64,000 bases of DNA from Euglena gracilis (taxonomy: Eukaryota): positions 39,827,816-39,891,815 of the forward strand of contig CP154954.1 in assembly GCA_039621445.1 (NCBI GenBank), written 5' to 3'. A program made the translations under genes and the position numbers. Positions 1-51,494 of the stretch are shown piece after piece (within the stretch, counting starts at the first letter, position 1; every line of letters starts with the position of its first letter). The notes below the pieces were generated by a model that was given only the letters and a program-made list of their open reading frames with translations, had not been told where the DNA came from and ran no database searches.

Positions 1-26
1 GGGGGTCATGTGCTGGTTGAAGCCCG

Positions 27-512
27 TCAGGTAGTCACAGCGTTCCGCGTGTTCACACAACAGTAGCACCTCCACTGGCCAGTGTGTTTCACTGCAACCC
101 TTGTCATCTCTGCCAAAAAAATTGGTTTTTGAGGGAAAGTCATGGACATGAGAGCCAGTTTTTTGCCGGTGGGTGCTAAACTCGGTGTTTCCACTGGGGC
201 ACCATTAAAACCGCCTGTGCCTGGTCTGCCTGGATTTTTTTTGATCTCGTCAGGGATCTTGTCGAACGGTGGGTTGATCCACAAGAGGCTGCCCTGCCAG
301 CTTTTTTGGAAGGCATCTGTGCCGTGCGGGCTTTCTGGTCCCCAACGATGCGGGAACCCATTGTCCTGTTCTGTGGCGAAGGCATCCACCTGTGGTTGCA
401 AACCGAAATGTGAGACGATTTTTTCCGCAAAAACGTCCTGCAGGTAGTACTGGTTGTTGATCCAACGGGACGCTGCCCGCCCAAACCTGCAGCTAGCCTC
501 CTCTCGTGGCAC
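27..512 (-). pseudogene. Dam-like (phage-type) DNA N6-adenine methyltransferase domain of a retrotransposon, frameshifted
   Basis: Reads YYLQD...VDAFATEQDN...DAFQKSWQGSLLWINPPFDKIP (NPPF at 264-275). After a frameshift in the T-run at 235-242 it continues KKIQADQAQAVLMVPQW. The motif order matches the DIRS MT domain elsewhere in this window (DLFAS..N, DAL, ANPPW, VLMVTPFW). Confidence 0.85.
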
Positions 513-688
513 CTGAGTCCTTGTGTTTTGTCTTTGTCTGTTTTGTGCTCTCCGGTCTAAACCCCTGGATCCCTTACCTCCCTCCGTTCGCTGTTTCTGC
601 TTGGTAAGGGCTGCTTTCTGTCCCTCGGTTCGGATTGTTTACTCAGAGAGTCGCCCCTCTCGGGCCCTTCCTCGATACCGCAGCCATT

Positions 689-1360
689 TCACTTCTGCCC
701 CTGAGCAGCAACCTGCTGTCCAGTCTGTGGTACTGCGGTTTTCTGTGTCCACCACGGTGGCTGTGGACACTTCCGTTTGAAATGTCCTGGCTGTTCACAG
801 TTGTAACACCGTCCTTCATCTGGAGGTGGTATGTATCTGGGCTGTCCGGCTGTCCCAGGGTTCTGTGTCGACTGCCAGGATGGTAGTCCTTTTCCTTAAT
901 TTTCTTTCACACTCCCCTTCCCAGACCCTTTTCCCTTGCCTTGGTCAGGATACGAACCCTGTCCATTGCGTTTTCCTTTCCCCTGGCTGTGATCCACAGC
1001 GGTCTAGACTGCCCAATTTTGGCCCAGATTTGTTGGTGGTCTGGGTTTTGTGGAATTGGAACGGGAATGGTCGGTGGGGTCTTTTTTGCTTCTGGTTCGA
1101 GAGGAATCAGTTTCCTTCACCTCCCGCACATACCCCCTTTTGTCGCTGGATTCGGTGTTCTCGTGGCTGGTTCTGCCACCGCCCGTAGGCAAAGAGTGTA
1201 CAAGTTTGCGTGGGACTCTGAACTGGATTCAAAGTGTCTGTCTTGTCTTCTGGGGTGCTGTGTGGGGAATTTTGGGAAGAGGACCCCTGAAGGCTGAAAA
1301 GTTGGATTTGGCCAGAAATCTGATGTGGTGAAATTATCTGGACACACTAGACCATCCCCC
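689..1360 (-). pseudogene. gag: Degenerate retrotransposon gag C-terminal region with CCHC zinc knuckle
   Basis: Manual minus-strand translation gives GKGK-rich sequence, an in-frame TAA, then GRCYNCEQPGHFKRKCPQPP (Cx2Cx4Hx4C at 767-808), ending at TGA 689-691. The knuckle-containing frame is missed by the ORF track. Confidence 0.8.
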
Positions 1361-1364
1361 AACT

Positions 1365-1753
1365 TGCAAGGCTCAACGGTCAATGTACAGTGTGTTGGAC
1401 CTAAAGGATGCTTTCCATCATGTACCCATGAGAAAGGAATCTCGACCCTGCACCTGCTGTAGTACACCAAGAGGAACAAAGCAGCGGAAAGTTGTGGTGA
1501 TGGGGATGAAAAACGGAGTCCCAATGTTCCAGAGGGTCCCTGAATACAGCCTGGAGGAGGTGGCAGAAACTGCCAACCCCTGCGTAGATGACATCATCCT
1601 AGGCACAGTTTGGCAGGGAACAGAAGAGGCAACAATTTTCCAACACGACAAGGACATCCGCAGAGTCATGAAGGCACTCAAGAAACAGCTGCTCGAAGCC
1701 GACATTAAAACATGTAAGTTTTTTGTTCATGAGGTGGAATTCTGCACACACAT
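1365..1753 (+). pseudogene. pol: Gypsy reverse transcriptase core
   Basis: SVLDLKDAFHHVP...VVVMGMKNGVPMFQR...NPCVDDIILG...KTCKFFVHEVEFC. The YxDD motif reads CVDD. Confidence 0.9.
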
Positions 1754-1945
1754 CCCCTTTTTCTCTAGTCCCCTTTTCACCTTGAGTTTTTCCATCAGGT
1801 CCGCTGCCAGTACGGCGTATCCTGGGATGTAGGAGGAGTAGTAGTTGTTGAATCCCAGGAATGCGCGGAGGGCTGTGATGGTTTTTGGTTCTTCCCACTT
1901 TTCAAGGGCCATCAGTTTTCCTGGGGTTGGTCTCCGTTGTCCTCC
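1754..1945 (-). pseudogene. pol: Locally inverted RT thumb/connection segment of the same pol
   Basis: The minus strand reads GGQRRPTP..KLMALEKWEEPKTITALRAFLGFNNYYSSYIPGYAVLAADLMEKLK. This is the segment missing between VEFC(T)H and GEKEHKAF on the plus strand. Confidence 0.85.
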
Positions 1946-2480
1946 TGTGTTTTTTTGGGGAGAAGGAACACAAGGCGTTCCAGGCCATCCAGCACAAACT
2001 GTTGGGCAGCATCAAACTGCGAACGGTCAACCCCGAAAAGCCGTTCATCTTCCGAGTGGATGCCAATGGCAGGGCTGTGGGGGGTGACTTGGAGCAGTTT
2101 GTGAAGGATGGATTGGGGAAACCATACACCACAACGACACAGACCAAGAAAACTGCCCCAGTGGCATTTTGTTCACGGAAATTGACACGGGGAAAGGTCA
2201 GGGTTTGGGCACAACGAGACAATGGAACATATGCGGTGATCCTGGCTCTTCAGAAATGGGCTGCGTGGATCGGTATGCAACCCGTGCTGGTCCTGACAGA
2301 TCACAAAGCAAACGAGTCTTGGGCCACAGAAAACCTGGACACAGCCACAGGGTTGTCGGGACGTAGGGCCACGTGGCACGAGCTCCTGTCAAAGTTTGAC
2401 TTTACGGTGGCTTATGTACCTTGGAAGGACAATGTAGTGGCTGACGCCTTGAGCAGGTGGGCCTATCCCCCCTCACAGGC
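1946..2480 (+). pseudogene. pol: Gypsy RNase H
   Basis: PFIFRVDANGRAVGG..PVAFCSRKL..YAVILALQKW..VLVLTDHK..VAYVPWKDNVVADALSR. Confidence 0.9.
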
Positions 2481-3009
2481 GTTTGCGGACGTCAGTGTGC
2501 ACGGTAGTGAGGAGAACGACCGCCTCATGCAAGAAATCATGGAACATGAAAGGAAGGAGGAAAGGGGCTGCTCAGAGGTTTCAATGAAGGAATTGCTCGA
2601 GGGACAGAAAAAATTGGGACACCCACCCCTCGTTGTGAGCGTCACAACAAGGGGAGGGGCCAAGACTGGTGAGGATTCGGCCACAACGAGCAAAGACACA
2701 CCAGGGAAGGAGACCTCCCAGAAAAAAATCAAAAATTTCTAAACCCAAGGACAGGAACACTTAAAGATACACAAGAAAAGGGAACCCCATAGTAATATAT
2801 GGCCAAGAGGGCAGCCAAAGAGGAAGACCCCCCTAGGCGAAGAACCTTAAAAGAGGACCCTGTGGACCCTCCAAAAACAGCAATTCCAGTGGACGACGTA
2901 CTCGAGGAAGGGCAGCGTCCCTCGTCTTCGACGAGCCTGCCTGTTCGACCTCCATCAAGGGGAGTGCACGACCCGGAGCTTCCACCGACAGGGTCGCAGT
3001 CGGTGATGG

Positions 3010-4200
3010 ACGAGGACTGGAGGAGCGGGTACAGGGGGTGCCCCAAGTGGAGCCCTGTGCTCAAGGGGTTGGAGGATTCAATGTTCAAAGAATGGCCTGA
3101 GGGCTTCCAAATTTAAAACGGAAGGCTCTGCAGATACGGCCTCCTGTGTGTGCAAGGGAAGTCACGGGGAGGGTCATCCCGGAACACCACAAAGCAGCGG
3201 GACACCCAGGGACTGAACGGCTGTGAAATCAGATGGGTCGGTGGTTTCTTTTCTCCAACCACCAGCACGCAAGAAAACTGACCAGCAGAATAATGGGGTT
3301 GTACGAAACGTGTCAGGTCACTGAACCAAACCATCAACCCTTCAAGTGTTTCGATATAACCAACACCGGTCCCGCCACACCTGATGGATAGTGTGGCGGT
3401 CGACGTCTTTGCACTAACGGAAACCACTTTTGAAGGGAAACGGGTCGACACTTTTGCACTTTGTGTGGACCGATTGAGTGGGTGGATGGATGCCAGCCCC
3501 CATCTTTGCAAGGGTCTCACGACAGAGAAGGTGGCCAAGGACATGTTTCGACAATGGGATCTGTTCGGAATACCCTCGGTGGTGAATTCCGACAGGGGTC
3601 CACAGTTCACAGCAGCCTGGTGGAAAACTCTGTGTGTGGAACACAATGTAAGGGTTGCCTGTGGGCAGGCTTACCAGCATCAGGCGAACGGAAGGGCAGA
3701 GGTATCCGGGCAGCAGGTGATGCGGAAATTTGCAAAACTCGCTGCAAAAAGCCGTGTCCCTTGGGTGGAACTCCTGCCACGGGCCCTGAGGGCCATTCAC
3801 GACGTAACGACGTAACGACCGGGCGAGGCTGGACTGTCCCCCCACGAAGTTGTTTTTGGACGACACCGACCGTTGCGTGGGATTCCGCACAAACCACAGC
3901 GGGAGGCTGAATGCGCGACAGAAGTCCTCAAATGAAGGAGGGAACAAGACAGGTGGGGGGCTCAAACGCTCAATTCAAAAAAGGAGGCTCGGAAAGAGGC
4001 CACAAACGACGTGGACCCCCAGCCTTGCAGACTGGTTCCAAGGTTTGGTACCAACCTGAACGACAGCCTGGAACCGACTAGTTGGAACCCAGGTGGAAAG
4101 GGCCAGCGGTGTTTTTGGAAAGAGTGGGAGACCACTCCTATGTGGTGGAGCTTCAACCGGGGAAGCGACAACTGGCCCACCGTTCCCAACTGAAACCACA
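3010..4200 (+). pseudogene. pol: Gypsy integrase (HHCC remnant, DDE core, GPY/F)
   Basis: EHHKAAGHPG...ETCQ zinc-finger remnant; AVDVF / NSDRGPQF / ANGRAE catalytic triad; LSPHEVVFGR; EPRWKGPAVFLERVGDHSYVV. An 8-bp duplication (gacgtaac, ~3801-3816) shifts the frame. Confidence 0.9.
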
Positions 4201-4282
4201 CGTGGACGACCTTTACTCGACCATCCCCATACCCTTGTATTTTTGGTGTGGAAAGACTCAAAAACTGGAAGTTCGACCTGGC

Positions 4283-4440
4283 GAGTGGGAGGTAGAAAGG
4301 GTGCTCAACCACCAACACGACAACGGGAAGACGGAATTTTGGCGCGGTGGAAAGGATTCGGGCCAGAACACGACCATTGGGAACAACTGGGTAGTTTTTT
4401 CTTTAGAATTTCAAGGATGTGGTTGCCCATTGGTTGGAGA
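4283..4440 (+). pseudogene. Chromodomain at the integrase C-terminus
   Basis: EWEVERVLNHQHDNGKTE / LARWKGFGPEHDHWEQLGSF across a frameshift. Confidence 0.8.
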
Positions 4441-5064
4441 ACGGGGTGGATTTAGACGCAAAGGAGGAGATGATGAAATGGCAAGGTTTCTTGTCTTCTT
4501 CATCCCAGATTCCCTCACAGATGGCCCGCTAACACCCACACCAACAACCCCAACATCACCATCCCTGCTTTCGATTTCAACCCCTTCAACGCCCACCCCC
4601 TCCCGAGTACCAGCCACCCCCAGCCCCCGACTTCGTCATCCCAACCCTCCAACCCCCACCCCAACGCAAGGCCTTTGAGGCCGTTCTTCCCCCCTATGCC
4701 AGCTGCTGGAGAACACCCACACTCACAGCTACCCAGCCAGCAAGCAGCCCTCCCCCAGCCGCACACATACCCACCCCAATAGCAACCCAGCCCACCACAA
4801 CAATGACACCCTCCCCGAAGGAGCGCTGACACACCACCTGAAGGAGCCCCTGCAGCCCCCGTTCCCTCAGCCCCCCCCCCTGTGCCTGGGAACCACGGAC
4901 CGAAGCTCGTCCCCCCCCCGGCGTCGCCGACCTCTGCCTCCTTTGACGACGAGTCGCCCCCGCGACGCCCCACCCCCTGGTTCCTCAAAGACCTCTGGGG
5001 CTAGCTCCCCCCTGGAGGCTCCCTTCCCCCCTAATATTCGGCTGCCAGGGTAATAATTAGTAGA

Positions 5065-6769
5065 ATGAGAAGAGAAGACAAGACAAGAGACAAGAGAAGA
5101 CAAGAAGAGAAGAGAGAGAAGAGAAGAGAAGAGAAGAGAGAGAGAGAGAAGAGAAGAGAAGAGATAAGAGAAGAGAAGAGAAGAGAAGAGAAGAGAAGAG
5201 AAGAAGAGAAGAGAAGAGAAGAGAAGAGAAGAAAGAGAAGAGAAGAGAAGAGAGAGAGAAGAGAGAAGAGAAGAGAAGAAGAGAGAGAAGAGAGAAAGAG
5301 AAGGAGAAGAGAAAGAGAGAGAAGAGAAGAGAAAGGAGAAGAGAAGAGAGAGAAGAGAAGAGAAGAGAAGGCGAAGAGAAGAGAAGAGAAGAGAAGAGAA
5401 GAGAAGAGAAGAGAAGAGAAAGAAGAGAAGAGAAGAGAAAGAAGAGAAGAGAAAGAAGAGAGAGAAGAGAAGGAAGAAAGAGGGAGAAGAAGAGAAGAGA
5501 AAGAGAGAGAAGAGAAGAGAAGAGAAGAGAAGAGAAGAGAAGAAAAAGAAGAGAAGAGAAGGGGAGAGAAAGAGAGAAGAGAAGAGAAGAAAGAGAAAGG
5601 AAGAAAGAGAAGGGGAAGAGGAGAGAGAAGAGAAGAAGAAAGAGAAGAGAAGAGAGGAGAAGAAAAAAAGAGAAGAGAAGAGAAGAGAAGAGAAGAGAAG
5701 AGAAGGAGAAGAGAAGAGAAGAGAAGAAAGAGAAGGGAAGAAAGAGAAGAAAAGAAGAGAAGAGAAGAAAGAAGAGGAGAAGAGAAGAGAAGAGAAGAGA
5801 AGAGAAGAGAAGAGAAGATAAGAGAAGGGGGGGGGAGAAGGAAGAGAAGAGAAGAGAAGAGAAGAGAAGAGAAGAAGAGAAGAGAGAGAGAAAGAGAAGA
5901 GAAGAAAAGAGAAGGGGAGAAGAGAAGAGAGAAGAGAAGAGAAGGAAGAGGAGAGAAGAGGGAGAAGAGAAGAGAAGAGAAGAGAAGAGGGAAGAGAAGA
6001 GAAGAGAGAAGAGAAGGAAGGAAGAGAGAAGGGGGGGGAAGGGGGGAGAAGGGGGGGGGGAAGGGGGGGGAGAGGGGGAGAAGGGGGGAGGAAGGGAAAG
6101 AGGAGGGGGGGGGGGGGGGGGGGGAGAGGAGGGGGGGGGAGGGGGGGGTGGGGGGGGGGGGGGAGAAGAAGAGAAGAGAAGGGGAGGGAGAAGAGAAGAG
6201 AAGGAGAAGAGAAGAGAAGAGAAGAGAAGAGAAGAGAAGAGAAGAGAATAAGAGAAGAGAAGAGAAGAGAAGGAAGGAAGAGAAGAGAAGAGAAGAAAGA
6301 GAAGAAAGAGAAGAGAAGAAAGAAGAAAAGAGAAGACAAAAGAAGAGAAAGAGAAGAGAGAGAAGAGAAGAGAAGAGAAGAGAAGAGGAGAGAGAAGAGA
6401 AGAGAAGAGGAAGAGAAGAGAAGAGAAGAGAAGAGAAGAGAAGAGAAGAGAAGAGAAGAGAAGATAAGAGAAGCGAAGAGAAGTGAAGAGAAGAGAAGAG
6501 AAGAGAAGAGAAGAGAAGAGAAGAGAAGAGAAGAGAAGAGAAGAGAAGAGAAGAGAAAGAGAAGAGAAGAGAAGGAGAAGAGAAGAGAAGAGAAGAGAGA
6601 GAAGAGAAGAGAAGAGAAGAGAAGAGAAGAGAAGAGAAGAGAAGAGAAGAGAAGAGAAGAGAAGAGAAGAGAAGAGAAGAGAAGAGAAGAGAGAAGAGAT
6701 ATACAAGAGAAAGATAAGAGAAGACAAGAGAAAGAGAAGAGAAGAGAAGAGAAGAGAAGAGAAGAGAAG
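5065..6769. repeat. (AGAAG)n homopurine microsatellite, ~1.7 kb
   Basis: Direct reading. ACAAG variants occur near both ends and there is a noisy G-rich middle (6030-6165). Confidence 0.97.
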
Positions 6770-6876
6770 ATAATATAATATAATATATAATATAATATAA
6801 CATAATATAGTATAGTATAGTATAATATAATATAGTATAATATAATATAATATAATATAATATAATATAATATAAG
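6770..6876. repeat. (ATAAT)n microsatellite
   Basis: Direct reading; abuts the AGAAG tract in the same 5-bp register. Confidence 0.95.
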
Positions 6877-7243
6877 ACTTACCTTTGACCCCATTTGCCC
6901 CGGAAAGGCGTTTTTGCCTTTTTCTGGTGCGCACCTACTTAGGTGAGGAAAAATCTTTGGAGTAGCAAAACCCTTTTCCCCAATTCCCCTATAGTAAGGA
7001 AGAGCACAAGACAAGTCGCTGTGTAAATACTTTCATTCACAGTCGTGTTCAGTTTGTTCTGAGGATTTTCCTCTTGCATGGAAAGAACCAGAATATGAAA
7101 AATAGAATACCACCTGTGAGGAAAACAAATCACGCGAGCACGTGTGATACGTATCGCTAATTACCATAGGATCTACCACGATCTTCAGGCTGTGCTAATC
7201 ACAGATGCCACATTATAACGGATCCAGACTCTGCATGTTTCCG

Positions 7244-7924
7244 TCATAGCTGGGATCGAGCCTGGTACAGAGTTTCCCCCTTGTCCTCCACTGCCACTTT
7301 GGGGGCATCCTCCTGGGGCTGTAACCGTACATTGAAACCCCCTGCTGGGGGACAGCCTTTTAGCTTCTGGGGTTTTCCTCCTTCTTGTAATTGATAGAGC
7401 CAGTGGCCTTGTAATTGTTGATGTTGTTGATGATAAATCTGGCCCCACCAGGCCACATGGCCGTCACTGGGGGGGGGGGGTTTGGGCTGTGAAAATTCTG
7501 GGGTGGGGGGCTGGGTAGGAAGAACGGCCACGGTTTGCAACGTGATGACCGCATCTCCAAGGCCTCCAGCTGCTGCGGCAAGTCCTCCAGGACGCCCGTG
7601 GCCACATAATTCAAATTTCTTCTCCACTGCATTGCTCATCGAAGTCGATATTGAAATTTGACAATTGAATTGTCAATTGATATTCGTCTGGTTCGTGTTC
7701 TTCTGGATATTGAATTGATATTGACTTCTTGTCTCCGTTCTTCTTCGTTCGTGAACTCTGTTCCTTTCTTCTGGGTGTCGAAGGGCAAGTTAGGAATCAG
7801 CCAACTCCGGCGAAAGAAGGCTCTGAGGGGGACCTCCTAACCCAGCGCAGCGAACAATCACACAACAAACCGCCGGCGAGCAATGCATGGCCTCACAATG
7901 GCAAAGTGCGGAGCCCGAGGTGTC
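7244..7924 (-). mobile_element. Inverted 5' fragment of the DIRS element (left LTR + start of ORF1)
   Basis: 7460-7924 is the reverse complement of 9150-9612. It starts exactly at the left terminus (GACACCTCGG) at 7924. Confidence 0.85.
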
Positions 7925-9149: not shown

Positions 9150-9276
9150 GACACCTCGGTCTCCGCACTTTGCCATTGTGAGGCCATGCCTTGCTCGCCG
9201 GCGGTTTGTTGTGTGATTGTTCGCTGCGCTGGGTTAGGAGGTCCCCCTCAGAGCCTTCTTTCGCCGGAGTTGGCTG
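9150..9276 (+). repeat. DIRS left inverted terminal repeat
   Basis: GACACCTCGG...GGAGTTGGCTG is the reverse complement of 13533-13568 joined to 13775-13869. Confidence 0.85.
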
Positions 9277-9285
9277 ATTCCTAAC

Positions 9286-10422
9286 TTGCCCTTCGACACC
9301 CAGAAGAAAGGAACAGAGTTCACGAACGAGGAAGAACTGAGAAAAGACATCAATCTCAATTCAATATCCAGAAGAACACGCTCCAGACTAAAATCAATTG
9401 ACAATTCAATTGTCAAATTTCAATATCAACTTCGATGAGCAATACAGTGGAGAAGAAATTGCAATTATATGGCCACTGGCGTCCTGGAGGAGTGGCCGCA
9501 GCAGCTGGAGACCTTGGAGATGCGGTCATCACGTGGAAAACGGTGGCCGTTCTTCCCACCCAGCCCCCCACCCCAGAAATTTCACAGCCCAAACCCCCCC
9601 CCAGTGACGGCCACGGTCCTTGGACCACTGTGGCCAGAAGGCCCAGAAGACAGAAGCTAGCCCCAGCCGTTGGTGGGCAAAGACTGGTCCATGGGGGCCA
9701 GAAATGCTTCACAATTGGACAATCAAAGCCCACCCATCAGGGGCTTCTCCCCCAAAAAACAAATTAGCCAGAAGATGGGGAGATGGAATCAAGGTCAAGG
9801 AGGTCAACACCACAGTGGCCATGGGGGCGAGTTTCAAAACAAATACCCTCAGGAAGGGGCAGAAAAGGTCTGTTTAACCCGCCCACACCATCTATCACAA
9901 CTGCCCCTCTCAAGGGGACAAGGGGGGGCCACAGCAGCCCCCGCGGATTTCCAATGGGGTTGGAGGCCAAGAAGAAATCAAGGCCTGGAAGACCACAAGA
10001 TGGATTATGGAAATAAACTTATACATGGAAACCTTGGAGACCAGCAGGGTGGACCCACAGTGGCCACCAAGAAGCTAAGGAACCAGCAGGGTGGACCCAC
10101 AGTGGCCACCAAGAATCTAAGGATGCTGCTGGAGAAATCCCCCGAGGGACCCACAGTGGCCCTCTGCCAACAATGGGGCAAAAAGGGACCCACAGTGGCC
10201 CTTTCAATGACCCAGCCCCAGGAGGAAAAGGGACCCACAGTGGCCCTGTCAAGGAACCAGCCCCCAGGGGCAAAGGGACCCACAGTGGCCCTTTTGGAGG
10301 GAGGGGCAGAAACCCCTCCAACATTTATTTCTCAATTCCCGAACAATCAATCAAGGGGGGGACCCACAGAGGCCCCCTATGGTATGTCAACCAACCAAAT
10401 CCACATGGAGAAGACCAGATAG
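9286..10422 (+). pseudogene. DIRS ORF1 (gag-position), broken, with in-frame GPTVA repeats
   Basis: Lies between the left LTR and RT and is low-complexity. No diagnostic gag motif was seen. Confidence 0.5.
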
Positions 10423-10829
10423 GCCGAACAGGGGCATTAAGCCCTATGGTATGTCTTCCAACAACAAGATCATCCAGAGAGGTGAGAAGAGAGGGAGAGA
10501 GTGCATGCACATCCCCCGAGAAAAAATTTCTTTTTACAAGGGCCCAAGCCCTAGGGGACCTAGGGGTGCAATGTCCAACACCCCCAACCCAGCCCCCCCA
10601 GAATCATCTTACCCAGAAAATAAATTAAATGGAGGGACTATGGGGAGACACCCCCTCCATCAAAGGTTGCAAAAAAGCCTAAAATGTCCAACATCTGCAC
10701 CCCAGCCCCCCCCAAAATCATCTTATCCAGGACTAAAAATGGGGAGACACCCCCCTCCATCAAAGGCTGCAAAAAAACTTGAAATGGAGGGCAAAAAATC
10801 CCCCCCAACAACATGTCAACTAATCAGGG

Positions 10830-11800
10830 ATGGCATTCAACCCCCCTGGGTCAGCTCACCAAAATTGTCCACCCACTCCAAAAACCAGAGCAAATTTGAA
10901 CTTACCCCAAGCAGAAAAAATACTGCTGGATTACGAAAAATCTGGATCCATAAAGAGGGTGAGGGATTCAACCACCCAACACCTGATCCCCTGGTTTCTG
11001 ATTTCAAACCCAGAGGGGGGGCAGACAAAATGGAGATTAATAAACGATTGCAGGGAAATAACTCAAAAGTTCCAAGTGAAACCTTTCAAGCTGGATCACA
11101 TCCAGCACATTTTTCCAGTTTTAGAAAAAGGCCACTGGGCAGCAAAAAATAGACCTGAAGGATACTTACTTCCACATCCCAGTGAGCCAGGCCCTAAGGC
11201 CCTTTCTAAGGCATTAGGTGGGGGGGGGCAGACCTGGGAATTCCAGGCAGGCTGCTTTGGCCTGAATGTAATGCCCCAGATTTTTATGTCAGTAATGAAG
11301 ACATTCGAAAAACTGTGGAGGAAAAGGGTCATCCAGGTATTTATTTACGTGGACTACGTTTTAGTGGTGGCCCCTACACAAAACATCTTACAGAATCACC
11401 TGAACACAGTGGTCAGGGATTTAATCAAATCAGGGTTGAAAATCAATGTAAAAAAAAGTCCACCCTGCAGCCCACCCAAATCGCCAATCATCTTGGATTT
11501 CAACTAAACTTCCAAGATGGAAAATTACAGGTGCCCCCCCAAAAATAAAAACAGTAAAAAAGGAGCTGGGAAAATGGTGAAAAAAGATTAAATGTCAAAA
11601 AGGCAACTGGCTGCCATTTTGGGCCAAATCAGATGCAATCTAATTGCCCTTCCCTTTCTAAGGGCCTCTACGGATGCCCTGGCAATATTTTTGGTGGAAA
11701 ATTCCACAGCCCCCTGGGACTCAAAACACCCCATTTCCCAAAGAATAAAGGACCAATTAAGAGAAATAAAAATTCTGGACACCTGGGCGGGCAGACCCTT
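10830..11800 (+). pseudogene. DIRS reverse transcriptase
   Basis: PWFLI..KWRLINDCREI..FKLD..KIDLKDTYFHIP..WEFQAGCFGLNVMPQIF..FIYVDY (YxDD mutated)..GLKINVKKS. Confidence 0.9.
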
Positions 11801-11809
11801 CCCCCAAAA

Positions 11810-12170
11810 CGCAACCAGGGAGTTGCACTCACACAGCAGTACCCATGCCTGGGGGGGGGGGGGCTGGACATTCGAACAGGCGAAATTGTGCAAGAATTTT
11901 GGAGGGAAAACTCCCTTTTGCACATAAATGTCAAAGAATGAAGTGCAGCAATAAGCACAGTTCAAAGCCTCAGCCAGCCAGGGGAAACTGTGTCCCTATC
12001 CGTGGACAATCAAGTAATTTACTATTACTTGACAAAAGGGGGGGCAGAAAGGACCCTTTCAATTCCATGCTAAGACCCTTCTTCAAATGGTGCATGGAAC
12101 ACAAAATAAACCTGCAAGTGAAGTGGGTCCCCTCAAAAGACTGCCTGGCAGACCCCATAAGCAGGTGGGA
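11810..12170 (+). pseudogene. DIRS RNase H
   Basis: LHSHSSTHAWGG (first Asp lost)..HINVKE..SVDNQV..KWVPSKDCLADPISR. Confidence 0.85.
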
Positions 12171-12174
12171 AATG

Positions 12175-12630
12175 GACAGGGGGGATTACTCACTGGACCC
12201 CCAACTTTTTCAATGGCTGAGGCAGCAGTTCAAAAATTACATCAGCCTGAAAACAGACCTTTTTGCCTCACCAGGCAACAAGAAAATGCCACAATTTGTG
12301 GCCAGGTGGCCCCACTGGGAAGCCACAGCAGTGTGCATGCACTGCAATGTCCACTGGACAACATGGGGGATCTTTATGCAAACCCCCCATGGTCTGTATT
12401 CCAAAATTTTCTCCCCAGATTAAAAATGTTTCCACGGGCCAAAGTTTTGATGGTCACCCCCTTTTGGGATTCAGCCACATGGTGGCCCCAATTAACAAAA
12501 ATGAAAGTTCCAGGGACCCCCTGCCTGAAAATCACCCCCTACATGGGTATGTTCACCAATTGCAGGGGGAAAAAAATGCCACCCCCAGGTGGCCCCTGCT
12601 TTGCATGATTTGCTCAGGCAAATTCTGGAG
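12175..12630 (+). pseudogene. DIRS Dam-like N6-adenine methyltransferase domain
   Basis: DYSLD..TDLFASPGNKK..LYANPPW (12381-12392)..VLMVTPFWDSATWWP. The canonical post-RNase H position. The domain is frame-intact in copies 2 and 3. Confidence 0.9.
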
Positions 12631-13490
12631 GGGAAACAAGCACAAAATTCGACCATTAACGATTTCCTGGGCAGAAACCCCAGTTTAAAGCGTTATCAAA
12701 GCGCTTTTACGCTTTTATGGGTAATTTTGGACAAGATGGGGGTATCCCCCCTGATGCCACCACTGACCAAGTGGTTGACACTTTAATTCAACTGTTTCAA
12801 TTTTCAAAGGCCCAAGCACGCAATGCATACAGTGCTATGCTATTGATTCCTGGCTTTGGAGGCCTCAGGTTCCATGCCATGTTGGCACCTTATAAAAGGC
12901 TTTGAAACCAAAACCCGGAGAGATATGGGGCATTCTGGGATCCCCTCCCAATCCTCCTGGGGCTGGCACAGTCCCCCCTGCCCTCTGATATATGTACATT
13001 GCGTACAAAACTCATTTTCTGTTCACGAATCCTCTGTTTATACAGAAGTTCAGATTTGGCACAGGTCCAAAGAACCACCAGTGTGTTGGGGGGGGGCACC
13101 CTACATCAAAATTAAACGTAAAGGGCAAAATCTCCATAAGTGGGAGAGAGTTGTCTCCATTCCCCAGTGCCCCCCGTTCAGTCCCTTCCATTTAATGACG
13201 TCTTATGTGGCAGCAACACGTTTCTTTATGAAACCTGGGGGCCCCCTGTTGATTTCGTTAAAACCCCCCTACAAAGCCATTAAGGCAGATACCATTGCTT
13301 CTATCACCAAAGACTTTTTGACCAAACAGGGGGTACCCCCCAGGTTTGGGGACCCCACTCCACCAGAGGGGCAGGGGTGGGTCTGCTAAAAAAAATTGGG
13401 TCTTTCTGCCCAAGAAGTTTGTGAAATTGGTCAATGGAAGGGGGTGGAGGCTTTCACAGCCCATTATCAAAGACTTGGTGCCCAAGGTTC
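12589..13490 (+). pseudogene. DIRS tyrosine recombinase
   Basis: LYRSSDL (R), IKRKG (K), HSTRGAG (HxxR), GQW (W), AFTAHY (Y); interrupted by stops and frameshifts. Confidence 0.9.
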
Positions 13491-13532
13491 TTTGGAGAAT
13501 GCCCTGGCCCCCCTTTTTTCGGTGCACAATCT

Positions 13533-13635
13533 GGCCTCACAAGGGCAAAGTGCGGAGCCCGAGGTGTCTCGTACTCCCTCGAGGCGGACCGAGAAGGGAG
13601 GAAGGGACACCGAGGGCGAACCACAAAGACATTGT
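13533..13635 (+). other. DIRS internal complementary region (ICR), circle-junction template
   Basis: Junction CCCGAGGTGTC|TCGTACTCCCTCGAGG at 13568/13569 joins complements of the left and right termini. Confidence 0.85.
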
Positions 13636-13774
13636 GAGCCCAACCCCCCACCCGTTGAAGAAAATTTGTCTTCAAACGCCCTCGGTCAGAGGATGGGGGC
13701 CAGGGGGGGGGCTAAGGGGGGGGGAACCCCCCAGGGAAAAAGACAGCGCCATGGTCGCCACGTCGGAGACAATG

Positions 13775-13937
13775 CAGCCAACTCCGGCGAGGCGGCACTA
13801 AGCGGAACCTCCTCACCCATGCGCAGCGAACAATCACACAACAAACCGCCGGCGAGCAAGGCATGGCCTGACAATGTCTTTGTGCTTCGCCCTCGGTGTC
13901 CCTTCCTCCCTTTTCGGCTTTCCTCGAGGGAGTATGA
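13775..13937 (+). repeat. DIRS right inverted terminal repeat plus extension
   Basis: 13775-13869 is inverted relative to the left LTR. 13871-13937 is inverted relative to ICR 13569-13635. Confidence 0.85.
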
Positions 13938-16351
13938 AATTACAGGTGCCCCCCAAAAAATAAAAACAGTAAAAAAGGAGCTGGGAAAATGGTGAAAAAA
14001 GATTAAATGTCAAAAAGGCAACTGGCTGCAATTTTGGGCCAAATCAGATGCAATCTAATTGCCCTGCCCTTTCTAAGGGCCTCTGCGGATGCCCTGGCAA
14101 TATTTTTGGTGGAAAATTCCACAGCCCCCTGGGACTCAAAACACCCCATTTCCCAAAGAATAAAGGACCAATTAAGAGAAATAAAAATTCTGCTGGACAC
14201 CTGGGCGGGCAGACCCTTCCCCCAAAATGCAACCAGGGAGTTGCACTCACATAGCAGTACCCATGCCTGGGGGGGGGGGGGCTGGACATTCGAACAGGCG
14301 AAATTGTGCAAGAATTTTGGAGGGAAAACTCCATTTTGCACATAAATGTCAAAGAATGAAGTGCAGCAATAAGCACAGTTCAAAGCCTCAGCCAGCCAGG
14401 GGAAACTGTGTCCCTATCCGTGGACAATCAAGTAATTTACTATTACTTGACAAAAGGGGGGGCAGAAAGGACCCTTTCAATTCCATGCTAAGACCCTTCT
14501 TCAAATGGTGCGTGGAACACAAAATAAACCTGCAAGTGAAGTGGGTCCCCTCAAAAGACTGCCTGGCAGACCCCATAAGCAGGTGGGAAATGGACAGGGG
14601 GGATTACTCACTGGACCCCCAACTTTTTCAATGGCTGAGGCAGCAGTTCAAAAATTACATCAGCCTGAAAACAGACCTTTTTGCCTCACCAGGCAACAAG
14701 AAAATGCCACAATTTGTGGCCAGGTGGCCCCACTGGGAAGCCACAGCAGTGGATGCACTGCAATGTCCACTGGACAACATGGGGGATCTTTATGCAAACC
14801 CCCCATGGTCTGTATTCCAAAATTTTCTCCCCAGATTAAAAATGTTTCCACGGGCCAAAGTTTTGATGGTCACCCCCTTTTGGGATTCAGCCACATGGTG
14901 GCCCCAATTAATAAAAATGAAAGTTCCAGGGACCCCCTGCCTGAAAATCACCCCCTACATGGGTATGTTCACCAATTGCAGGGGGAAAAAAATGCCACCC
15001 CCAGGTGGCCCCTGCTTTGCATGATTTGCTCAGGCAAATTCTGGAGGGGAAACAAGTACAAAATTCGACCATTAACGATTTCCTGGGCAGAAACCCCAGT
15101 TTAAAGCGTTATCAAAGCGCTTTTACGCTTTTATGGGAAATTTTGGACAAGATGGGGGTATCCCCCCTGATGCCACCACTGACCAAGTGGTTGACGCTTT
15201 AATTCAACTGTTTCAATTTTCAAAGGCCCAAGCACGCAATGCATACAGTGCTATGCTATTGATTCCTGGCTTTGGAGGCCTCAGGTTCCATGCCATGTTG
15301 GCACCTTATAAAAGGCTTTGAAACCAAAACCCGGAGAGATATGGGGCATTCTGGGATCCCCTCCCAATCCTCCTGGGGCTGGCACAGTCCCCCCTGCCCT
15401 CTGATATATGTACATTTGCGTACAAAACTCATTTTCTGTTCACGAATCCTCTGTTTATACAGAAGTTCAGATTTGGCACAGGTCCAAAGAACCACCAGTG
15501 TGTTGGGGGGGGCACCCTACATCAAAATTAAACGTAAAGGGCAAACTCTCCATAAGTGGGAGAGAGTTGTCTCCATTCCCCAGTGCCCCCCGTTCAGTCC
15601 CTTCCATTTAATGACGTCTTATGTGGCAGCAACACGTTTCTTTATGAAACCTGGGGGCCCCATGTTGATTTCGTTAAAACCCCCCTACAAAGCCATTAAG
15701 GCAGATACCATTGCTTCTATCACCAAAGACTTTTTGACCAAACAGGGGGTACCCCCCAGGTTTGGGGACCCCACTCCACCAGAGGGGCAGGGGTGGGTCT
15801 GCTAAAAAAAATTGGGTCTTTCTGCCCAAGAAGTTTGTGAAATTGGTCAATGGAAGGGGGTGGAGGCTTTCACAGCCCATTATCAAAGACTTGGTGCCCA
15901 AGGTTCTTTGGAGAATGCCCTGGCCCCCCTTTTTCGGTGCACAATCTGGCCTCACAAGGGCAAAGTGCGGAGCCCGAGGTGTCTCGTACTCCCTCGAGGC
16001 GGACCGAGAAGGGAGGAAGGGACACCGAGGGCGAACCACAAAGACATTGTGAGCCCAACCCCCCACCCGTTTAAGAAAATTTGTCTTCAAACGCCCTCGG
16101 TCAGAGGATGGGGGCCAGGGGGGGGCTAAGGGGGGGGGAACCCCCCAGGGAAAAAGACAGCGCCATGGTCGCCACGTCGGAGACAATGCAGCCAACTCCG
16201 GCGAGGCGGCACTAAGCGGGACCTCCTCACCCATGCGCAGCGAACAATCACACAACAAACCGCCGGCGAGCAAGGCATGGCCTGACAATGTCTTTGTGCT
16301 TCGCCCTCGGTGTCCCTTCCTCCCTTTTCGGCTTTCCTCGAGGGAGTATGA
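13938..16351 (+). mobile_element. Tandem copy 2 of the DIRS 3' half (RT thumb-RH-MT-YR-ICR-right LTR)
   Basis: Near-identical to 11523-13937; offset 2415 bp. Confidence 0.93.
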
Positions 16352-18767
16352 AATTACAGGTGCCCCCCAAAAAATAAAAACAGTAAAAAAGGAGCTGGGA
16401 AAATGGTGAAAAAAGATTAAATGTCAAAAAGGCAACTGGCTGCAATTTTGGGCCAAATCAGATGCAATCTAATTGCCCTGCCCTTTCTAAGGGCCTCTGC
16501 GGATGCCCTGGCAATATTTTTGGTGGAAAATTCCACAGCCCCCTGGGACTCAAAACACCCCATTTCCCAAAGAATAAAGGACCAATTAAGAGAAATAAAA
16601 ATTCTGCTGGACACCTGGGCGGGCAGACCCTTCCCCCAAAATGCAACCAGGGAGTTGCACTCACATAGCAGTACCCATGCCTGGGGGGGGGGGGGGGCTG
16701 GACATTCGAACAGGCGAAATTGTGCAAGAATTTTGGAGGGAAAACTCCATTTTGCACATAAATGTCAAAGAATGAAGTGCAGCAATAAGCACAGTTCAAA
16801 GCCTCAGCCAGCCAGGGGAAACTGTGTCCCTATCCGTGGACAATCAAGTAATTTACTATTACTTGACAAAAGGGGGGGCAGAAAGGACCCTTTCAAATCC
16901 ATGCTAAGACCCTTCTTCAAATGGTGCATGGAACACAAAATAAACCTGCAAGTGAAGTGGGTCCCCTCAAAAGACTGCCTGGCAGACCCCATAAGCAGGT
17001 GGGAAATGGACAGGGGGGATTACTCACTGGACCCCCAACTTTTTCAATGGCTGAGGCAGCAGTTCAAAAATTACATCAGCCCGAAAACAGACCTTTTTGC
17101 CTCACCAGGCAACAAGAAAATGCCACAATTTGTGGCCAGGTGGCCCCACTGGGAAGCAACAGCAGTGGATGCACTGCAATGTCCACTGGACAACATGGGG
17201 GATCTTTATGCAAACCCCCCATGGTCTGTATTCCAAAATTTTCTCCCCAGATTAAAAATGTTTCCACGGGCCAAAGTTTTGATGGTCACCCCCTTTTGGG
17301 ATTCAGCCACATGGTGGCCCCAATTAATAAAAATGAAAGTTCCAGGGACCCCCTGCCTGAAAATCACCCCCTACATGGGTATGTTCACCAATTGCAGGGG
17401 GGAAAAAATGCCACCCCCAGGTGGCCCCTGCTTTGCACGATTTGCTCAGGCAAATTCTGGAGGGGAAACAAGTACAAAATTCGACCATTAACGATTTCCT
17501 GGGCAGAAACCCCAGTTTAAAGCGTTATCAAAGCGCTTTTACGCTTTTATGGGAAATTTTGGACAAGATGGGGGTATCCCCCCTGATGCCACCACTGACC
17601 AAGTGGTTGACGCTTTAATTCAACTGTTTCAATTTTCAAAGGCCCAAGCACGCAATGCATACAGTGCTATGCTATTGATTCCTGGCTTTGGAGGCCTGAG
17701 GTTCCATGCCATGTTGGCACCTTATAAAATGCTTTGAAACCAAAACCCGGAGAGATATGGGGCATTCTGGGATCCCCTCCCAATCCTCCTGGGGCTGGCA
17801 CAGTCCCCCCTGCCCTCTGATATATGTACATTGCGTACAAAACTCATTTTCTGTTCACGAATCCTCTGTTTATACAGAAGTTCAGATTTGGCACAGGTCC
17901 AAAGAACCACCAGTGTGTTGGGGGGGGCACCCTACATCAAAATTAAACGTAAAGGGCAAACTCTCCATAAGTGGGAGAGAGTTGTCTCCATTCCCCAGTG
18001 CCCCCCGTTCAGTCCCTTCCATTTAATGACGTCTTATGTGACAGCAAAACGTTTCTTTATGAAACCTGGGGGCCCCCTGTTGATTTCGTTAAAACCCCCC
18101 TACAAAGCCATTAAGGCAGACACCATTGCTTCTATCACCAAAGACTTTTTGACCAAACAGGGGGTACCCCCCAGGATTGGGGGCCCCACTCCACCAGAGG
18201 GGCAGGGGTGGGTCTGCTGAAAAAAATTGGGTCTTTCTGCCCAAGAAGTTTGTGAAATTGGTCAATGGAAGGGGGTGGAGGCTTTCACAGCCCATTATCA
18301 AAGACTTGGTGCCCAAGGTTCTTTGGAGAATGCCCTGGCCCCCCTTTTTTCGGTGCACAATCTGGCCTCACAAGGGCAAAGTGCGGAGCCCGAGGTGTCT
18401 TGTACTCCCTCGAGGCAGACCGAGAAGGGAGGAAGGGACACCGAGGGCGAACCACAAAGACATTGTGAGCCCGACCCCCCACCCGTTTAAGAAGATTTGT
18501 CTTCAAACGCCCTCGGTCAGAGGATGGGGGCCAGGGGGGGGCTAAGGGGGGGGGAACCCCCCAGGGAAAAAGACAGCGCCATGGTCGCCACGTCGGAGAC
18601 AATGCAGCCAACTCCGGCGAGGCGGCACTAAGCGGGACCTCCTCACCCATGCGCAGCGAACAACCACACAACAAACCGCCGGCGAGCAAGGCATGGCCTG
18701 ACAATGTCTTTGTGCATCGCCCCCGGTGTCCCTTCCTCCCTTTTCGGCTTTCCTCGAGAGAGTATGA
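16352..18767 (+). mobile_element. Tandem copy 3 of the DIRS 3' half
   Basis: Near-identical to copy 2; offset 2414 bp. Confidence 0.93.
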
Positions 18768-18786
18768 AATGTGTCAGCCACTTGAC

Positions 18787-20510
18787 GATAAATCTGGCCC
18801 CACCAGGCCACATGGCCGTCACTGGGGGGGGGGGGGGTGGGCTGTGAAATTCCTGGGGTGTGGGGCTGGGTGGGAAGAACGGCCACGGTTTGCCACGTGC
18901 TGACCGCATCTCCAAGGTCTCCAGCTGCTGCGGCCACTCCTCCAGGACGCCCGTGGCCACATAATTCAAATTTCTTCTCCACTGTATTGCTCATCGAAGT
19001 CGATATTGAAATTTGACAATTGACTTGTCAATTGATTTTCGTCTGGAGCGTGTTCTTCTGGATATTGAATTGATATTGACTTCTTGTCTCCGTTCTTCTT
19101 CGTTCGTGAACTCTGTTCCTTTCTTCTGGGTGTCGAAGGGCAAGTTAGGAATCAGCCAACTCCGGCGAAAGAAGGCTCTGAGGGGGACCTCCTAACCCAG
19201 CGCAGCGAACAATCACACAAACAAAAGGCATAAAGTCACAATGGCGGAGGAGGGAGGAAAAAATGAGGACAAGCAAAGTGCGGTAATGCTGTACTCAATT
19301 TTTTTGCCCCTGCCTTTCATTGGGTTTATGTTTGCTGATCCTGGTTTGGGCTGAAGATGACGCTGTGTATTCCTACAACAATCACCCCCCCGGCGGGTAG
19401 CCCATAAATGGCAAAGGCGGAGCCCGAGGGTGTACAATTCTCAATTATCCCAGGACCAAGCCCTGCCTACAGTGCTAGGCTTTTTGATTCCTGGGGTTGG
19501 GGCTGAAATTCCACACCCTATGGACCCCTTAAAAGAGGCTTTGGAGCCAAAAACCTGAGACGTATGGTGCATTTTAGGACCCCCTCCCAATCCTCCTGCT
19601 GGCAAAGGCCGTATGCCCACATGATAGTTGTACTCTGGGGTACACATGATTTTTGCTCAAGAATCCTCTGATTCCGATCCTCGGACTCATCGCAGTCCAA
19701 CGAACCACCAGTGTGTCGGTAGGGCCCATAATCAGATTAATAAGAAAGAAGTTCCATAAATGGGAAAGGGTTGCGTCCATTCCCCAGTGTCCCCAAATAA
19801 GCCCATTTCATTTGATGATGTGCTATGAGGCTGCTTCACGTTTATATGTCAGACTTGGGGTTCCCTCCTAATTTCATTAAAACCTCCTTCAGGGCCGTAA
19901 GTGCAGACACCGTTGCTTTCATCAAAAAATATTTTTTTCATCAAAAAACTTTTTTTGCGAAACAAGGTGTACCCCCAAGGTATGGGGGGCCCACCCCGCC
20001 AGAGGGGCTGGGGTTGGGTTACTCAAAAAATGGGGCCTTTCTGCCCAAGAAGTTTGTGAAATTGGCCGGTGGAGGGGGGGGTGGAAACTTTTACAGCCCA
20101 TTATCAACGGCTTGGTGCCCAAGGACCCTGGAAAATGCCCTGGCCCCCCTAATTTCAGTACAAAATCTGGCCTCACGAGGGCAACGTGCCGAGCCCGAGG
20201 TGTCTCGTACTCCCTCCAGACAAAACGACACGGGAGGAAGGAGCACCGAGGGCGAAGCGCAAAGACCTTGTGAGCTTGGCCCCCCCACCCGTAGAAGAAA
20301 ATTTTCTCAAACCCCTCGTAGAAGAATTTGAACAAGCGCTCGTAGGGACACCGAGGGCGAAGCCCAAAGACCTTGTTAGGCCTGAGGGCGAAGCGAGGGA
20401 CCTGTTAGGCCCTTCGCCACTCGTGTCCCTTCGTTGTCCCTTCCCCCCTTGTCGGTTATCCTCGAGGGAGTACGACCCTCCCGCGAGGTGAACCGGGGGC
20501 CTTTTTGGGG
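18787..20510. mobile_element. Second copy of the rearranged DIRS module (inverted left end + YR/ICR/right-end remnant)
   Basis: Direct, more decayed repeat of 7432-9149, with the same breakpoint context and the same terminal CCCGCGAGGTGAACCGG(A/G)GGCCTTTTTGGG. Confidence 0.85.
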
Positions 20511-48195: not shown

Positions 48196-48922
48196 TTTTG
48201 GGGCCCTCGAACCGTTGGCCAACTAAAGGGGTTTGCCCCCCAAAAAGGGTGGGTAACACAAGGGATTTTCCCCCAAAACGACTGGGTAACACAAGGGATT
48301 TTGTTATTTTGGGGCCCTCGAACAGTTGGGCAACAAAAGGGATTTGCCCCCCCCCCCCAAAACGGGTGGGTAACACAAGGGATTTTGTTGTTTTGGGGCC
48401 CTCGAACAGTTCGGCAACCAAAGGGATTTGCCCCCCCAAAACGGATGGGTAACACAAGGGATTTTGTTATTTTGGGGCCCTCGAACAGTTGGGCAACAAA
48501 AGGGATTTGCCCCCCCAAAACGAATGGGTAACACAAGGGATTTTGTTATTTTTGGGGCCCTCAAACAGTTCAGCAACAAAAGGGTTTTGCCCCCCCCCCC
48601 AAAAACGGGTGGGTAACACAAGGGATTTTGTTATTTTGGGGCCCTCGAACCGTTGACCAACAAAAGGGATTTGCCCCCCAAAACGGGTGGGTAACACAAG
48701 GGATTTTGTCATTTTGGGGCCCTCGAACAGTTCGGCAACCAAAGGGATTTGCCCCCCCAAAACGGGTGGGTAACACAAGGGATTTTATTATTTTGGGGCC
48801 CTCGAACAGTTCGGCAACCAAAGGGATTTGCCCCCCCAAAACGGGTGGGTAACACAAGGGATTTTGTTATTTTGGGGCCCTCGAACAGTTGGGCAACAAA
48901 AGGGATTTGCCCCCCAAAACGG
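48196..48922. repeat. 78-bp satellite block 3
   Basis: Resumes the monomer broken at 44625 (..GATTTTGTTA | TTTTGGGGCCC..). Confidence 0.95.
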
Positions 48923-49616
48923 TGTTGGGGTTGCCCCTCCTGAGGTCCCTGTGAAGGGACCCCTGGCGGCGCAACCCGCGTAGGATCGTTTAAATTTGAG
49001 CCCGTCGGGCCCACAGGGTTTTCCTCTTGGTGAAAAAGTGGGGTAGGGGTTGGTGTTGGTGTAGGTGAAGCCGCAGAATTGGAAAAATACATACTTTTGG
49101 GGTCCACTCAATTGAACTTGATTGAATAATCTGGTCAATGCCTTGGACTTGTTTGCTATTTGAACTTTCCTTGATTTCTTTGTACTTTGAATTGGCTTGC
49201 AATGCAAAACAATTGACGCCAAATGTCAAACAAAACAGAGTGTGAACAGAGCCCTGTGAACAGAAAATGTACAATTGGAGGGGGGCTACAGCTGGGGGGG
49301 GCTACTTGGTATACTTTGCGCAATTCTTAATGAATTGCGCCATCCCAAGCGCCCACCAAGGGGGTGCGCATGCTTGCGCAAAGCCCAGCAGGGCTTGCGC
49401 ATCCCCTTGGGGGTTGCCTGTTGGCCCCCTCAAACTGCCCCCTCCTTTACCTTCCCTTGGCTTGGTCAAAATGGGCTGTGGGGCCCCCTTGGGGGCCATT
49501 GGGGCCTCAAAAGGCCCTTGGGGGCCTTGGAGCCCCCCTCGCGGCCCTTCGTGGCCCCTTTGGGCCCCCTTGGAACCCCTCCTTGGGGCGGGCACCCTCG
49601 GACCGCGCACAGCACA
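48923..49616. mobile_element. Probable solo LTR (694 bp) inserted in a satellite monomer
   Basis: TGT...ACA termini with a 4-bp TSD, ACGG (48919-48922 and 49617-49620). The satellite resumes in register. Confidence 0.65.
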
Positions 49617-49978
49617 ACGGGTGGGTAACACAAGGGATTTTGTTGTTTTGGGGCCCTCGAACAGTTGGGCAACAAAACGGATTTGCCCCACAAAACGGGT
49701 GGGTAACACAAGGGATTTTTTTTATTTTGGGGCCCTCAAACAGTTCGGCAACCAAAGGGATTTACGCCCCAAATGAGTTGGAATACACAAGGGATTTTGT
49801 TATTTTGGGGCCATCGAACAGTTCGGCAACAAAAGGGATTTACGCCCCAATTGTTGGATTACACAAGGGATTTGCCCCCCCGAAACGGGTGGGTAACACA
49901 AGGGATTTTGTTATTTTGGGGCCCTCGAATAGCTGGGCAAAAAAAAGGGATTTGCCCCCCAAATCAGTTGGGTTACAC
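49617..49978. repeat. 78-bp satellite block 4, degenerating edge
   Basis: The same monomer with increasing divergence. Confidence 0.9.
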
Positions 49979-51422: not shown

Positions 51423-51494
51423 ACCCCTGTAGCATAGCGGTCGTGTGGTTAGCGTGTGAGCGGTAGGTCGCGGGTTCGAATCCCGCCGGGGGGC
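51423..51494 (+). tRNA. tRNA-like sequence (probable tRNA-Thr(TGT)-derived pseudogene or SINE head)
   Basis: Box A TAGCATAGCGG; intact T arm GCGGG-TTCGAAT-CCCGC; acceptor stem with 6/7 pairs; TGT in the anticodon position, but the anticodon stem pairs poorly; T5 run downstream. Confidence 0.6.

Follow-up and report, generated by a model that had tools for sequence, protein, structure and literature searches.

Two decayed pieces of a Ty3/gypsy-type retrotransposon family lie head to head within the first 4465 positions of a 64,000-nucleotide stretch of Euglena gracilis DNA (GenBank assembly GCA_039621445.1, contig CP154954.1, positions 39,827,816 to 39,891,815 of the forward strand; the whole stretch is referred to as the window). 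The minus-strand piece carries the end of gag and a Dam-like N6-adenine methyltransferase domain, and the plus-strand piece carries a reverse transcriptase (RT) lacking its N-terminal part, followed by remnants of RNase H (RH), integrase (IN) and a chromodomain. As judged from their relatives, both pieces appear to belong to the same sub-lineage, in which Dam is followed by a C5 cytosine DNA methyltransferase (DNMT), a protease (PR) and the RT. The order of the family would be (gag) Dam-DNMT-PR-RT-RH-IN-chromodomain, which suggests a Ty3/gypsy chromovirus-like element with a pol that starts with the Dam-like domain. Every domain at the locus is interrupted; the copy is therefore dead, without activity, and cannot methylate. 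The proposal that the element methylates its own cDNA, made in an original prediction from the letters of the DNA alone, thus does not apply to this copy. Overall, that prediction read this dead and rearranged copy correctly and perceptively; it missed an inversion of the RT thumb described below. The coordinates of all parts are collected in Table 1.

Table 1. Parts of the two retrotransposon pieces and of the DNA between them (positions in the window)
Feature	Positions	Strand	Evidence
Dam-like N6-adenine methyltransferase remnant	1..506	-	motifs, tblastn, phmmer
Linker, gag stop to Dam	507..688	-	homologous to the N-terminus of relatives' open reading frames with a Met just before Dam
Gag nucleocapsid remnant (Gly/Lys-rich, CCHC 808-767)	689..1066	-	zf-CCHC 29.3 bits; contigs of other copies diverge at 1032 and 1066
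Matches neither the family nor any protein family	1067..1187		covering contigs (runs X1, X2, X20) at low, single-copy-like depth
Piece of a far more abundant repeat, truncated on both sides when compared with other copies	1188..1368		contig depth and loose ends
Gypsy-type RT without N-terminal part	1369..1754	+	RVT_1 E=1.3e-12; contig loose end at 1369
RT thumb/connection segment, inverted in place	1754..1945	-	tblastn; contig joins
RNase H, in another frame than RT	1954..2742	+	RT_RNaseH 55.7 bits, RT_RNaseH_2 45.9 bits; 44-62% identity to relatives
Integrase, zinc-binding part and DDE core, six in-frame stops	2832..4007	+	tblastn, P0151 residues 511-891, 44% identity
Integrase C-terminal SH3-like part, frameshifted relative to the core, one in-frame stop	3929..4348	+	tblastn, P0151 residues 867-1011 (50%); SH3_Tf2-1 weak, E=0.044
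Chromodomain remnant, split by a frameshift	4327..4446	+	tblastn to the Chromo positions of relatives

Relatives and Family Assignment

An exhaustive phmmer search with the 203-residue Dam open reading frame (ORF) of the window against 1.84 billion proteins yielded 201 relatives at E<=1e-3, the best with E=2.8e-31 and 45% identity. In line with this result, the motifs DAFA, DAF, INPPF and VLMVPQW, on which a Dam-like methyltransferase in another frame downstream of gag had been predicted, are all present in the translation. Word-indexed protein searches with the same ORF, for longer and for near proteins, gave no match. Thirty-two of the 201 relatives, comprising the top matches and all long ones, were scanned with Pfam; 28 match Dam (PF05869) at E<=0.01, and the cut-off of this model is attained by 12. 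Among those scanned, two long proteins proved to be low-complexity false matches. A search for longer proteins with the RNase H ORF of the window gave 29 matches. Precomputed Pfam assignments place Dam in four of these (P0162, P0164, P0168 and P0175), and P0155 was found in addition when we scanned 12 of the 29 ourselves.

In the relatives, Dam is collinear with gypsy domains within one ORF (P0104, P0162, P0164, P0168, P0175 and P0155), and the Pfam scan of 44 relatives revealed a tyrosine recombinase in none. Both results run opposite to the outcomes that the original prediction had named as telling against it, namely gag and methyltransferase never collinear with gypsy RT and IN, or a methyltransferase followed by a tyrosine recombinase. 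P0162, whose source name EG_transcript_113 hints at a euglenid, has the order Dam-PR-RT-RH-IN-Chromo, P0104 has PR-Dam-RT-RH-IN, P0060 and P0073 have PR-Dam-RT, and P0155 has Dam-DNMT-PR-RT-RH; P0154 begins inside the DNMT, P0153 at its end and P0156 at the last Dam block. Dam lies upstream of RT in all relatives holding both domains, and with respect to the protease at least five module orders occur (Dam-DNMT-PR, DNMT-Dam-PR, Dam-PR, PR-Dam and PR-DNMT-Dam). The predicted order of methyltransferase, PR, RT, RH, IN and chromodomain after gag is thus found in relatives, except that the closest ones insert a DNMT between Dam and PR.

The RT of the window is 56-64% identical to that of P0151-P0156, and 58-64% identical to that of P0152-P0156 versus 30-47% for the other Dam-bearing polyproteins (tblastn). 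Between region 170-420 of P0155 and the stretch of P0168 that lies above the Pfam cut-off for C5 DNA_methylase, the identity is 52% (E=7e-68). On the Dam side, the closest multi-domain relatives P0003, P0010 and P0032 run from Dam into DNMT, and P0032 continues into PR. A Dam tree was built from 44 rows, the window and 43 proteins, which were selected from P0001-P0060 and an architecture-labelled set with a motif pattern and a filter on length; P0155, P0162, P0164, P0168 and P0111 failed the filter and lie outside it. In this tree, P0001 and P0002 join the window sequence (support 96/90) inside a group of 24 rows (support 84/91, below the star threshold). The latter holds all three Dam-then-DNMT rows, none of the nine PR-then-Dam rows and neither of the two DNMT-then-Dam rows.

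Several observations weigh against this assignment. The Dam ORF of the window itself scores 13.7 bits on Pfam Dam, against a cut-off of 28.1, which its relatives P0001 and P0002 exceed with 28.8 and 30.6 bits. DNMT and PR are not seen in the window. Moreover, a CCHC knuckle or gag remnant is present in none of 179 related proteins, and the adjacency of gag and Dam therefore rests on this one decayed copy. By analogy to P0155, P0032, P0010 and P0003, the DNMT would lie just past the left edge of the window. A scan of metagenome contigs gave two loci (L001 and L002) with an RT of 31% identity and no Dam match, which are uninformative on the linkage of gag and Dam.

With regard to the fold of the domain, the Asn-Pro-Pro-aromatic pocket reads INPPF in the window, and the N83-P84 column is invariant in the Dam alignment A1. 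A profile of the Dam alignment found no match among PDB sequences at E<=1. The predicted structure of the relative P0002 (predicted local distance difference test, pLDDT, 74.3) has its best matches among solved structures in cap-specific adenosine N6-methyltransferases (E=2.1e-4, template modelling score, TM, 0.40), followed by other adenine methyltransferases; the nearest solved folds are the cap-specific PCIF1/CAPAM, which act on RNA. The model would thus fit an adenine N6-methyltransferase fold, and does not distinguish between DNA, RNA or a hybrid as the substrate.

The Minus-Strand Piece

As predicted, a GKGK-rich Gly/Lys stretch precedes a CCHC knuckle in one minus-strand frame, which is closed by a TGA at 691-689. 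The first Cys codon of the knuckle starts at 808 and the last ends at 767, and the zf-CCHC match (E=8.2e-07) clears its cut-off of 20.8 bits. Further in-frame stops are located upstream of the knuckle at 898-896 and 1006-1004. Pfam scans of the window frames revealed no capsid part in the gag remnant; therefore, the minus-strand gag sequence is the nucleocapsid-like C-terminal tail and not the whole of gag.

The Dam frame is -1 relative to gag and is open from 794 apart from a single TAA at 641-639; the alignment of P0001 begins at residue 12 of the Dam ORF used as the query. The Dam-like domain is divided among three reading frames (506-237, 241-179, 176-99 and 87-1), with at least three frame changes. 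It has the full length when compared with its relatives, and its last conserved block reaches base 1, the edge of the window. Correspondingly, tblastn aligned residues 11-132 of P0002 to 488-126 (43% identity) and residues 129-173 to 138-4 (56%).

The Plus-Strand Piece and an Inversion within the RT

The plus-strand piece had been predicted as an N-terminally truncated gypsy RT followed by RH, IN and chromodomain. Pfam supports this for RT and RH: RVT_1 matches with 48.3 bits over profile positions 65-201 of 205, so that about 64 N-terminal positions are absent. For the integrase, rve remains below its cut-off (28.4 versus 32.6 bits), and the region is 35-44% identical to the integrases of relatives, which themselves match rve and Integrase_H2C2. 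Pfam called no Chromo domain in the frames over the chromodomain region, and this remnant is recognized through the alignment of relatives instead (P0151 residues 1002-1026, 56% identity; P0175 residues 1386-1425, 40%). Frame changes separate RT, RH, IN and chromodomain. Sequence resembling the family stops by about 4465, where a contig has a loose end, and the sequence beyond has low depth.

The match to the RT thumb sits on the opposite strand, between the plus-strand RT match ending at 1754 and the RNase H match starting at 1954. All 13 relatives that cover the thumb align to the minus strand at about 1945-1754, with 47-77% identity; Pfam gave no match on the thumb frames. The right junction (1945/1954) is bridged by contigs in four of four public runs, with depths comparable to other pieces present in single copy. 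In the same four runs, contigs of other copies leave the window at 1945 with identical letters, which correspond to the uninverted continuation. When read by hand on the opposite strand, these departing letters translate into the RT residues found ahead of the thumb in relatives, for instance in P0155. Because the junction is bridged and the other copies continue uninverted, the inversion of about 190 bases is real and particular to this copy.

The ratio of observed to expected CpG is 0.55 and 0.62 for the two pieces. When the window is compared with public contigs over 1-4465, the differences are mostly A or T in the window and G or C in the contigs; for run X1, 12 of 22 differing places are A>G or T>C. 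The bias towards A/T and the depletion of CpG would fit a C-to-T decay of a methylated, dead copy.

The DNA between the Two Pieces

The RT had been predicted to abut the gag piece at about 1363. The boundary was located at 1368|1369 and family-like gag sequence ends near 1066, so that about 300 bases foreign to the family, about 120 without any match and a 181-base repeat fragment, separate the two pieces. Other copies depart from the window at 1032, 1066, 1188, 1368/1369 and 4465, and the locus contains at least three breakpoints (about 1066, 1187|1188 and 1368|1369).

The repeat fragment stands out by its contig depth, which was used to contrast neighbouring bins rather than as a copy number and was read only where contigs cover: in four of four runs, bin 1170-1336 has a word depth about 100- to 430-fold that of its left neighbour, and it lies far above both sides. 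Loose ends of this abundant repeat occur at 1188 (5 and 7 contigs) and at 1368. Its observed/expected CpG is 0.1, and neither Pfam nor Rfam gave a match. A contig of run X6, at single-copy-like depth, spans 1300-1402, and therefore the join between the repeat and the RT is real.

We also considered 1188-1368 as a long terminal repeat (LTR) of the family. This was not accepted, as nothing alike follows the chromodomain and the other copies continue past both ends. Neither piece is flanked by a direct repeat, and nothing within 1-4700 is repeated elsewhere in the 64-kb window; the absence of LTRs is expected for truncated fragments. Likewise, blastx of 600-1400 gave chance-level matches only, Pfam found no match on the frames of 887-1346, and an Rfam search of the whole window returned one tRNA at 51423-51494 and nothing in 1-5000.

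Repeat Surroundings

The window is a repeat graveyard. A purine-rich (GAGAA)n-like microsatellite with poly-G runs extends over about 2 kb directly downstream of the chromodomain remnant (5035-7032). It is followed by a 453-base inverted repeat (7472-7924 and 9150-9602; 94% complementary, with 1225 bases between the arms), which overlaps the left terminal repeat of a second, DIRS-like retroelement. The latter occupies 9209-19220 on the plus strand and is bounded by inverted terminal repeats of 394 bases (9209-9602 and 18827-19220, 95% complementary). Its RT is found in ORF 10824-11504 (RVT_1 E=1.1e-10). An internal segment of 2416 bases is tandemly triplicated at 98-100% identity, and consequently a Dam-like ORF occurs three times, with weak matches to Pfam Dam (E=0.0035-0.0077) and likewise to PCIF1_WW. 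In ORF 13390-13992, which was without a Pfam match for a recombinase, we presume a possible recombinase C-terminal motif.

Further to the right, a satellite with a 78-base unit covers 21165-44618, 48250-48922 and 49616-49850; its main block comprises 255 copies with 88% matches, and spurious long ORFs arise from it in several frames. At the right end, 9.8 copies of a 210-base unit in tandem (61944-64000) run off the window.

One Rearranged Copy or Separate Fragments

How did the two pieces come to lie head to head? The evidence leans slightly towards separate fragments, joined by several breaks, rather than halves of one copy. The minus-strand piece (1-1066) comprises the end of gag with its Zn knuckle and Dam, and should continue leftward beyond the window into DNMT, PR and RT, as suggested by the relatives. 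The plus-strand piece (1369-4465) extends from inside the RT to the chromodomain, with the thumb inverted in place, and the unmatched bases together with the fragment of the abundant repeat split the two in a repeat-rich stretch.

The original prediction had instead suggested one element with one large inversion. As stated, this is at odds with the number of breakpoints, the non-family DNA between the pieces and the lack of an LTR. In a more general form, a single inserted copy with a block from within gag to within RT inverted in place is a less favoured, albeit serious, possibility. The layout that would go with it, with DNMT, PR and the RT N-terminus on the minus strand immediately left of the window and, farther out on the plus strand, the 5′-LTR and the gag N-terminus, is held just as tentatively. 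The complementarity of the pieces speaks for a single copy and against separate fragments: they do not overlap, gag and Dam being on one strand and RT onward on the other. In the same direction point their common Dam-DNMT-PR-RT sub-lineage, their similar decay, including the CpG ratios of 0.55 and 0.62, and the verified inversion of about 190 bases in the same copy (1754-1945), which demonstrates that a rearrangement of this type did occur. However, after a simple two-break inversion the gag remnant should lie directly against the RT, and what is found there instead is about 300 bases foreign to the family, part of them from another repeat that is truncated on either side. Moreover, the divergence of other gag copies at 1032/1066 requires further breaks, the plus-strand piece likewise has no 3′-LTR, and neighbouring fragments of an abundant family are common in a repeat-dense region such as this window.

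That the part with gag and Dam derives from a DIRS/PAT-type tyrosine-recombinase element that merely adjoins a gypsy fragment is highly improbable, even though DIRS elements were the first in which Dam-like domains became known (PMC3266345, as far as the accessible part of that paper goes) and a DIRS-like element with its own Dam-like domain lies in the same window at 9.2-19.2 kb. The scanned relatives (0/44) lack a tyrosine recombinase, their Dam precedes PR/RT rather than following RNase H, and the nearest Dam relatives continue into DNMT and PR. Furthermore, the Dam of the DIRS-like element is only 26-28% identical over 134 residues to P0060, a relative of the minus-strand Dam, and did not match the minus-strand Dam ORF in a self-search of the window. 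There is also little reason to regard the head-to-head join and the small inversion as assembly artefacts. Repeat-rich regions are prone to misjoins and none of the listed contigs or reads spans the whole stretch, but 1945/1954 is bridged in four of four separately filed runs at single-copy-like depths and the X6 contig bridges 1300-1402, with the reservation that the independence of the runs is incomplete, as the best-matching run may be the sample behind the assembly of the window.

Beyond the preference for separate fragments, a speculative and rather doubtful extension is that short-range inversion or template switching recurrently reshuffles epigenetic modules in this host, and that the window captures the process in a dead copy. 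This reading derives from the occurrence of at least five module orders in a single gypsy RT lineage and from the in-place inversion, perhaps with a second, larger one. Equally doubtful is its corollary that the neighbouring DIRS-like element carries the ancestral form of the Dam domain.

Relation to Known Systems

The original prediction left open whether the architecture had been described, and held that a methyltransferase domain is not standard in integrase-encoding LTR elements. Both points have been overtaken by a bioRxiv preprint of May 2026 (10.64898/2026.05.21.726589), which, in its accessible part, reports DAM-LTRs in several eukaryotic lineages, including Euglena elements that join Dam, DNMT and a chromodomain (‘EpiLTR’). 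Full-text literature searches found no further paper describing Dam-bearing LTR elements. The family in the window appears, by its domain content, to be this Euglena-type DAM-LTR/‘EpiLTR’, and its architecture is thus already described. The two share a gypsy-like RT, RH, IN and chromodomain and a Dam with the Asn-Pro-Pro pocket, joined in a subset by the C5-DNMT; as far as the preprint text is accessible, this domain set is exactly that of the nearest relatives of the window. In contrast, the copy described here is dead, truncated and rearranged, with its DNMT part outside the window, and its pol opens with Dam, which follows immediately on the gag Zn knuckle. The accessible preprint text gives no domain order and makes no mention of gag.

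With regard to function, the same text proposes that the Dam of intact elements may mark the reverse-transcription product or new insertions with N6-methyladenine (6mA), that this marking would engage the host 6mA system and that the chromodomain would steer integration. It reports that the authors' assay in E. coli was negative and that 6mA is enriched on such elements. As the copy is dead, it says nothing on function. The locus adds little beyond the preprint: independent sequence-level support for Dam as the first domain of pol after a gag Zn knuckle. This position, the at least five module orders and the in-place inversion within a copy may modestly exceed the part of the preprint text that is accessible. 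A further point of interest is that a DIRS-like element, which brings a Dam-like domain of its own, lies within the window at a distance of 5 kb.

The homologous Dam-like ‘MT’ domain also links the family to DIRS1/PAT elements. In agreement with the original prediction, which regarded the domain as typical of DIRS elements, it follows RT-RH in their pol according to the accessible part of PMC3266345. Unlike the family described here, DIRS elements possess a tyrosine recombinase and inverted terminal repeats and lack a DDE integrase, whereas here Dam stands before PR/RT, the relatives have a DDE integrase and a chromodomain, and a recombinase was not found in them. The preprint, as far as accessible, names DIRS as the likely donor of the Dam domain and regards the RT/RH of DIRS as related to gypsy.

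With chromoviruses, the family shares the order RT-RH-IN-chromodomain and, in its relatives, the H2C2 zinc-binding domain and the SH3-like integrase tail; it differs in that its pol additionally begins with two methyltransferase modules, and in the window copy LTRs and PR are not seen. A captured C5 cytosine methyltransferase is likewise known from dinoflagellate and charophyte retrotransposons carrying a DNMT (PMC5890265, a paper whose subject, in its accessible part, is cytosine methyltransferases). However, the DNMT module of Euglena and Cymbomonas represents a separate acquisition according to the accessible text of the preprint (10.64898/2026.05.21.726589), which places it as sister to DNMT4.

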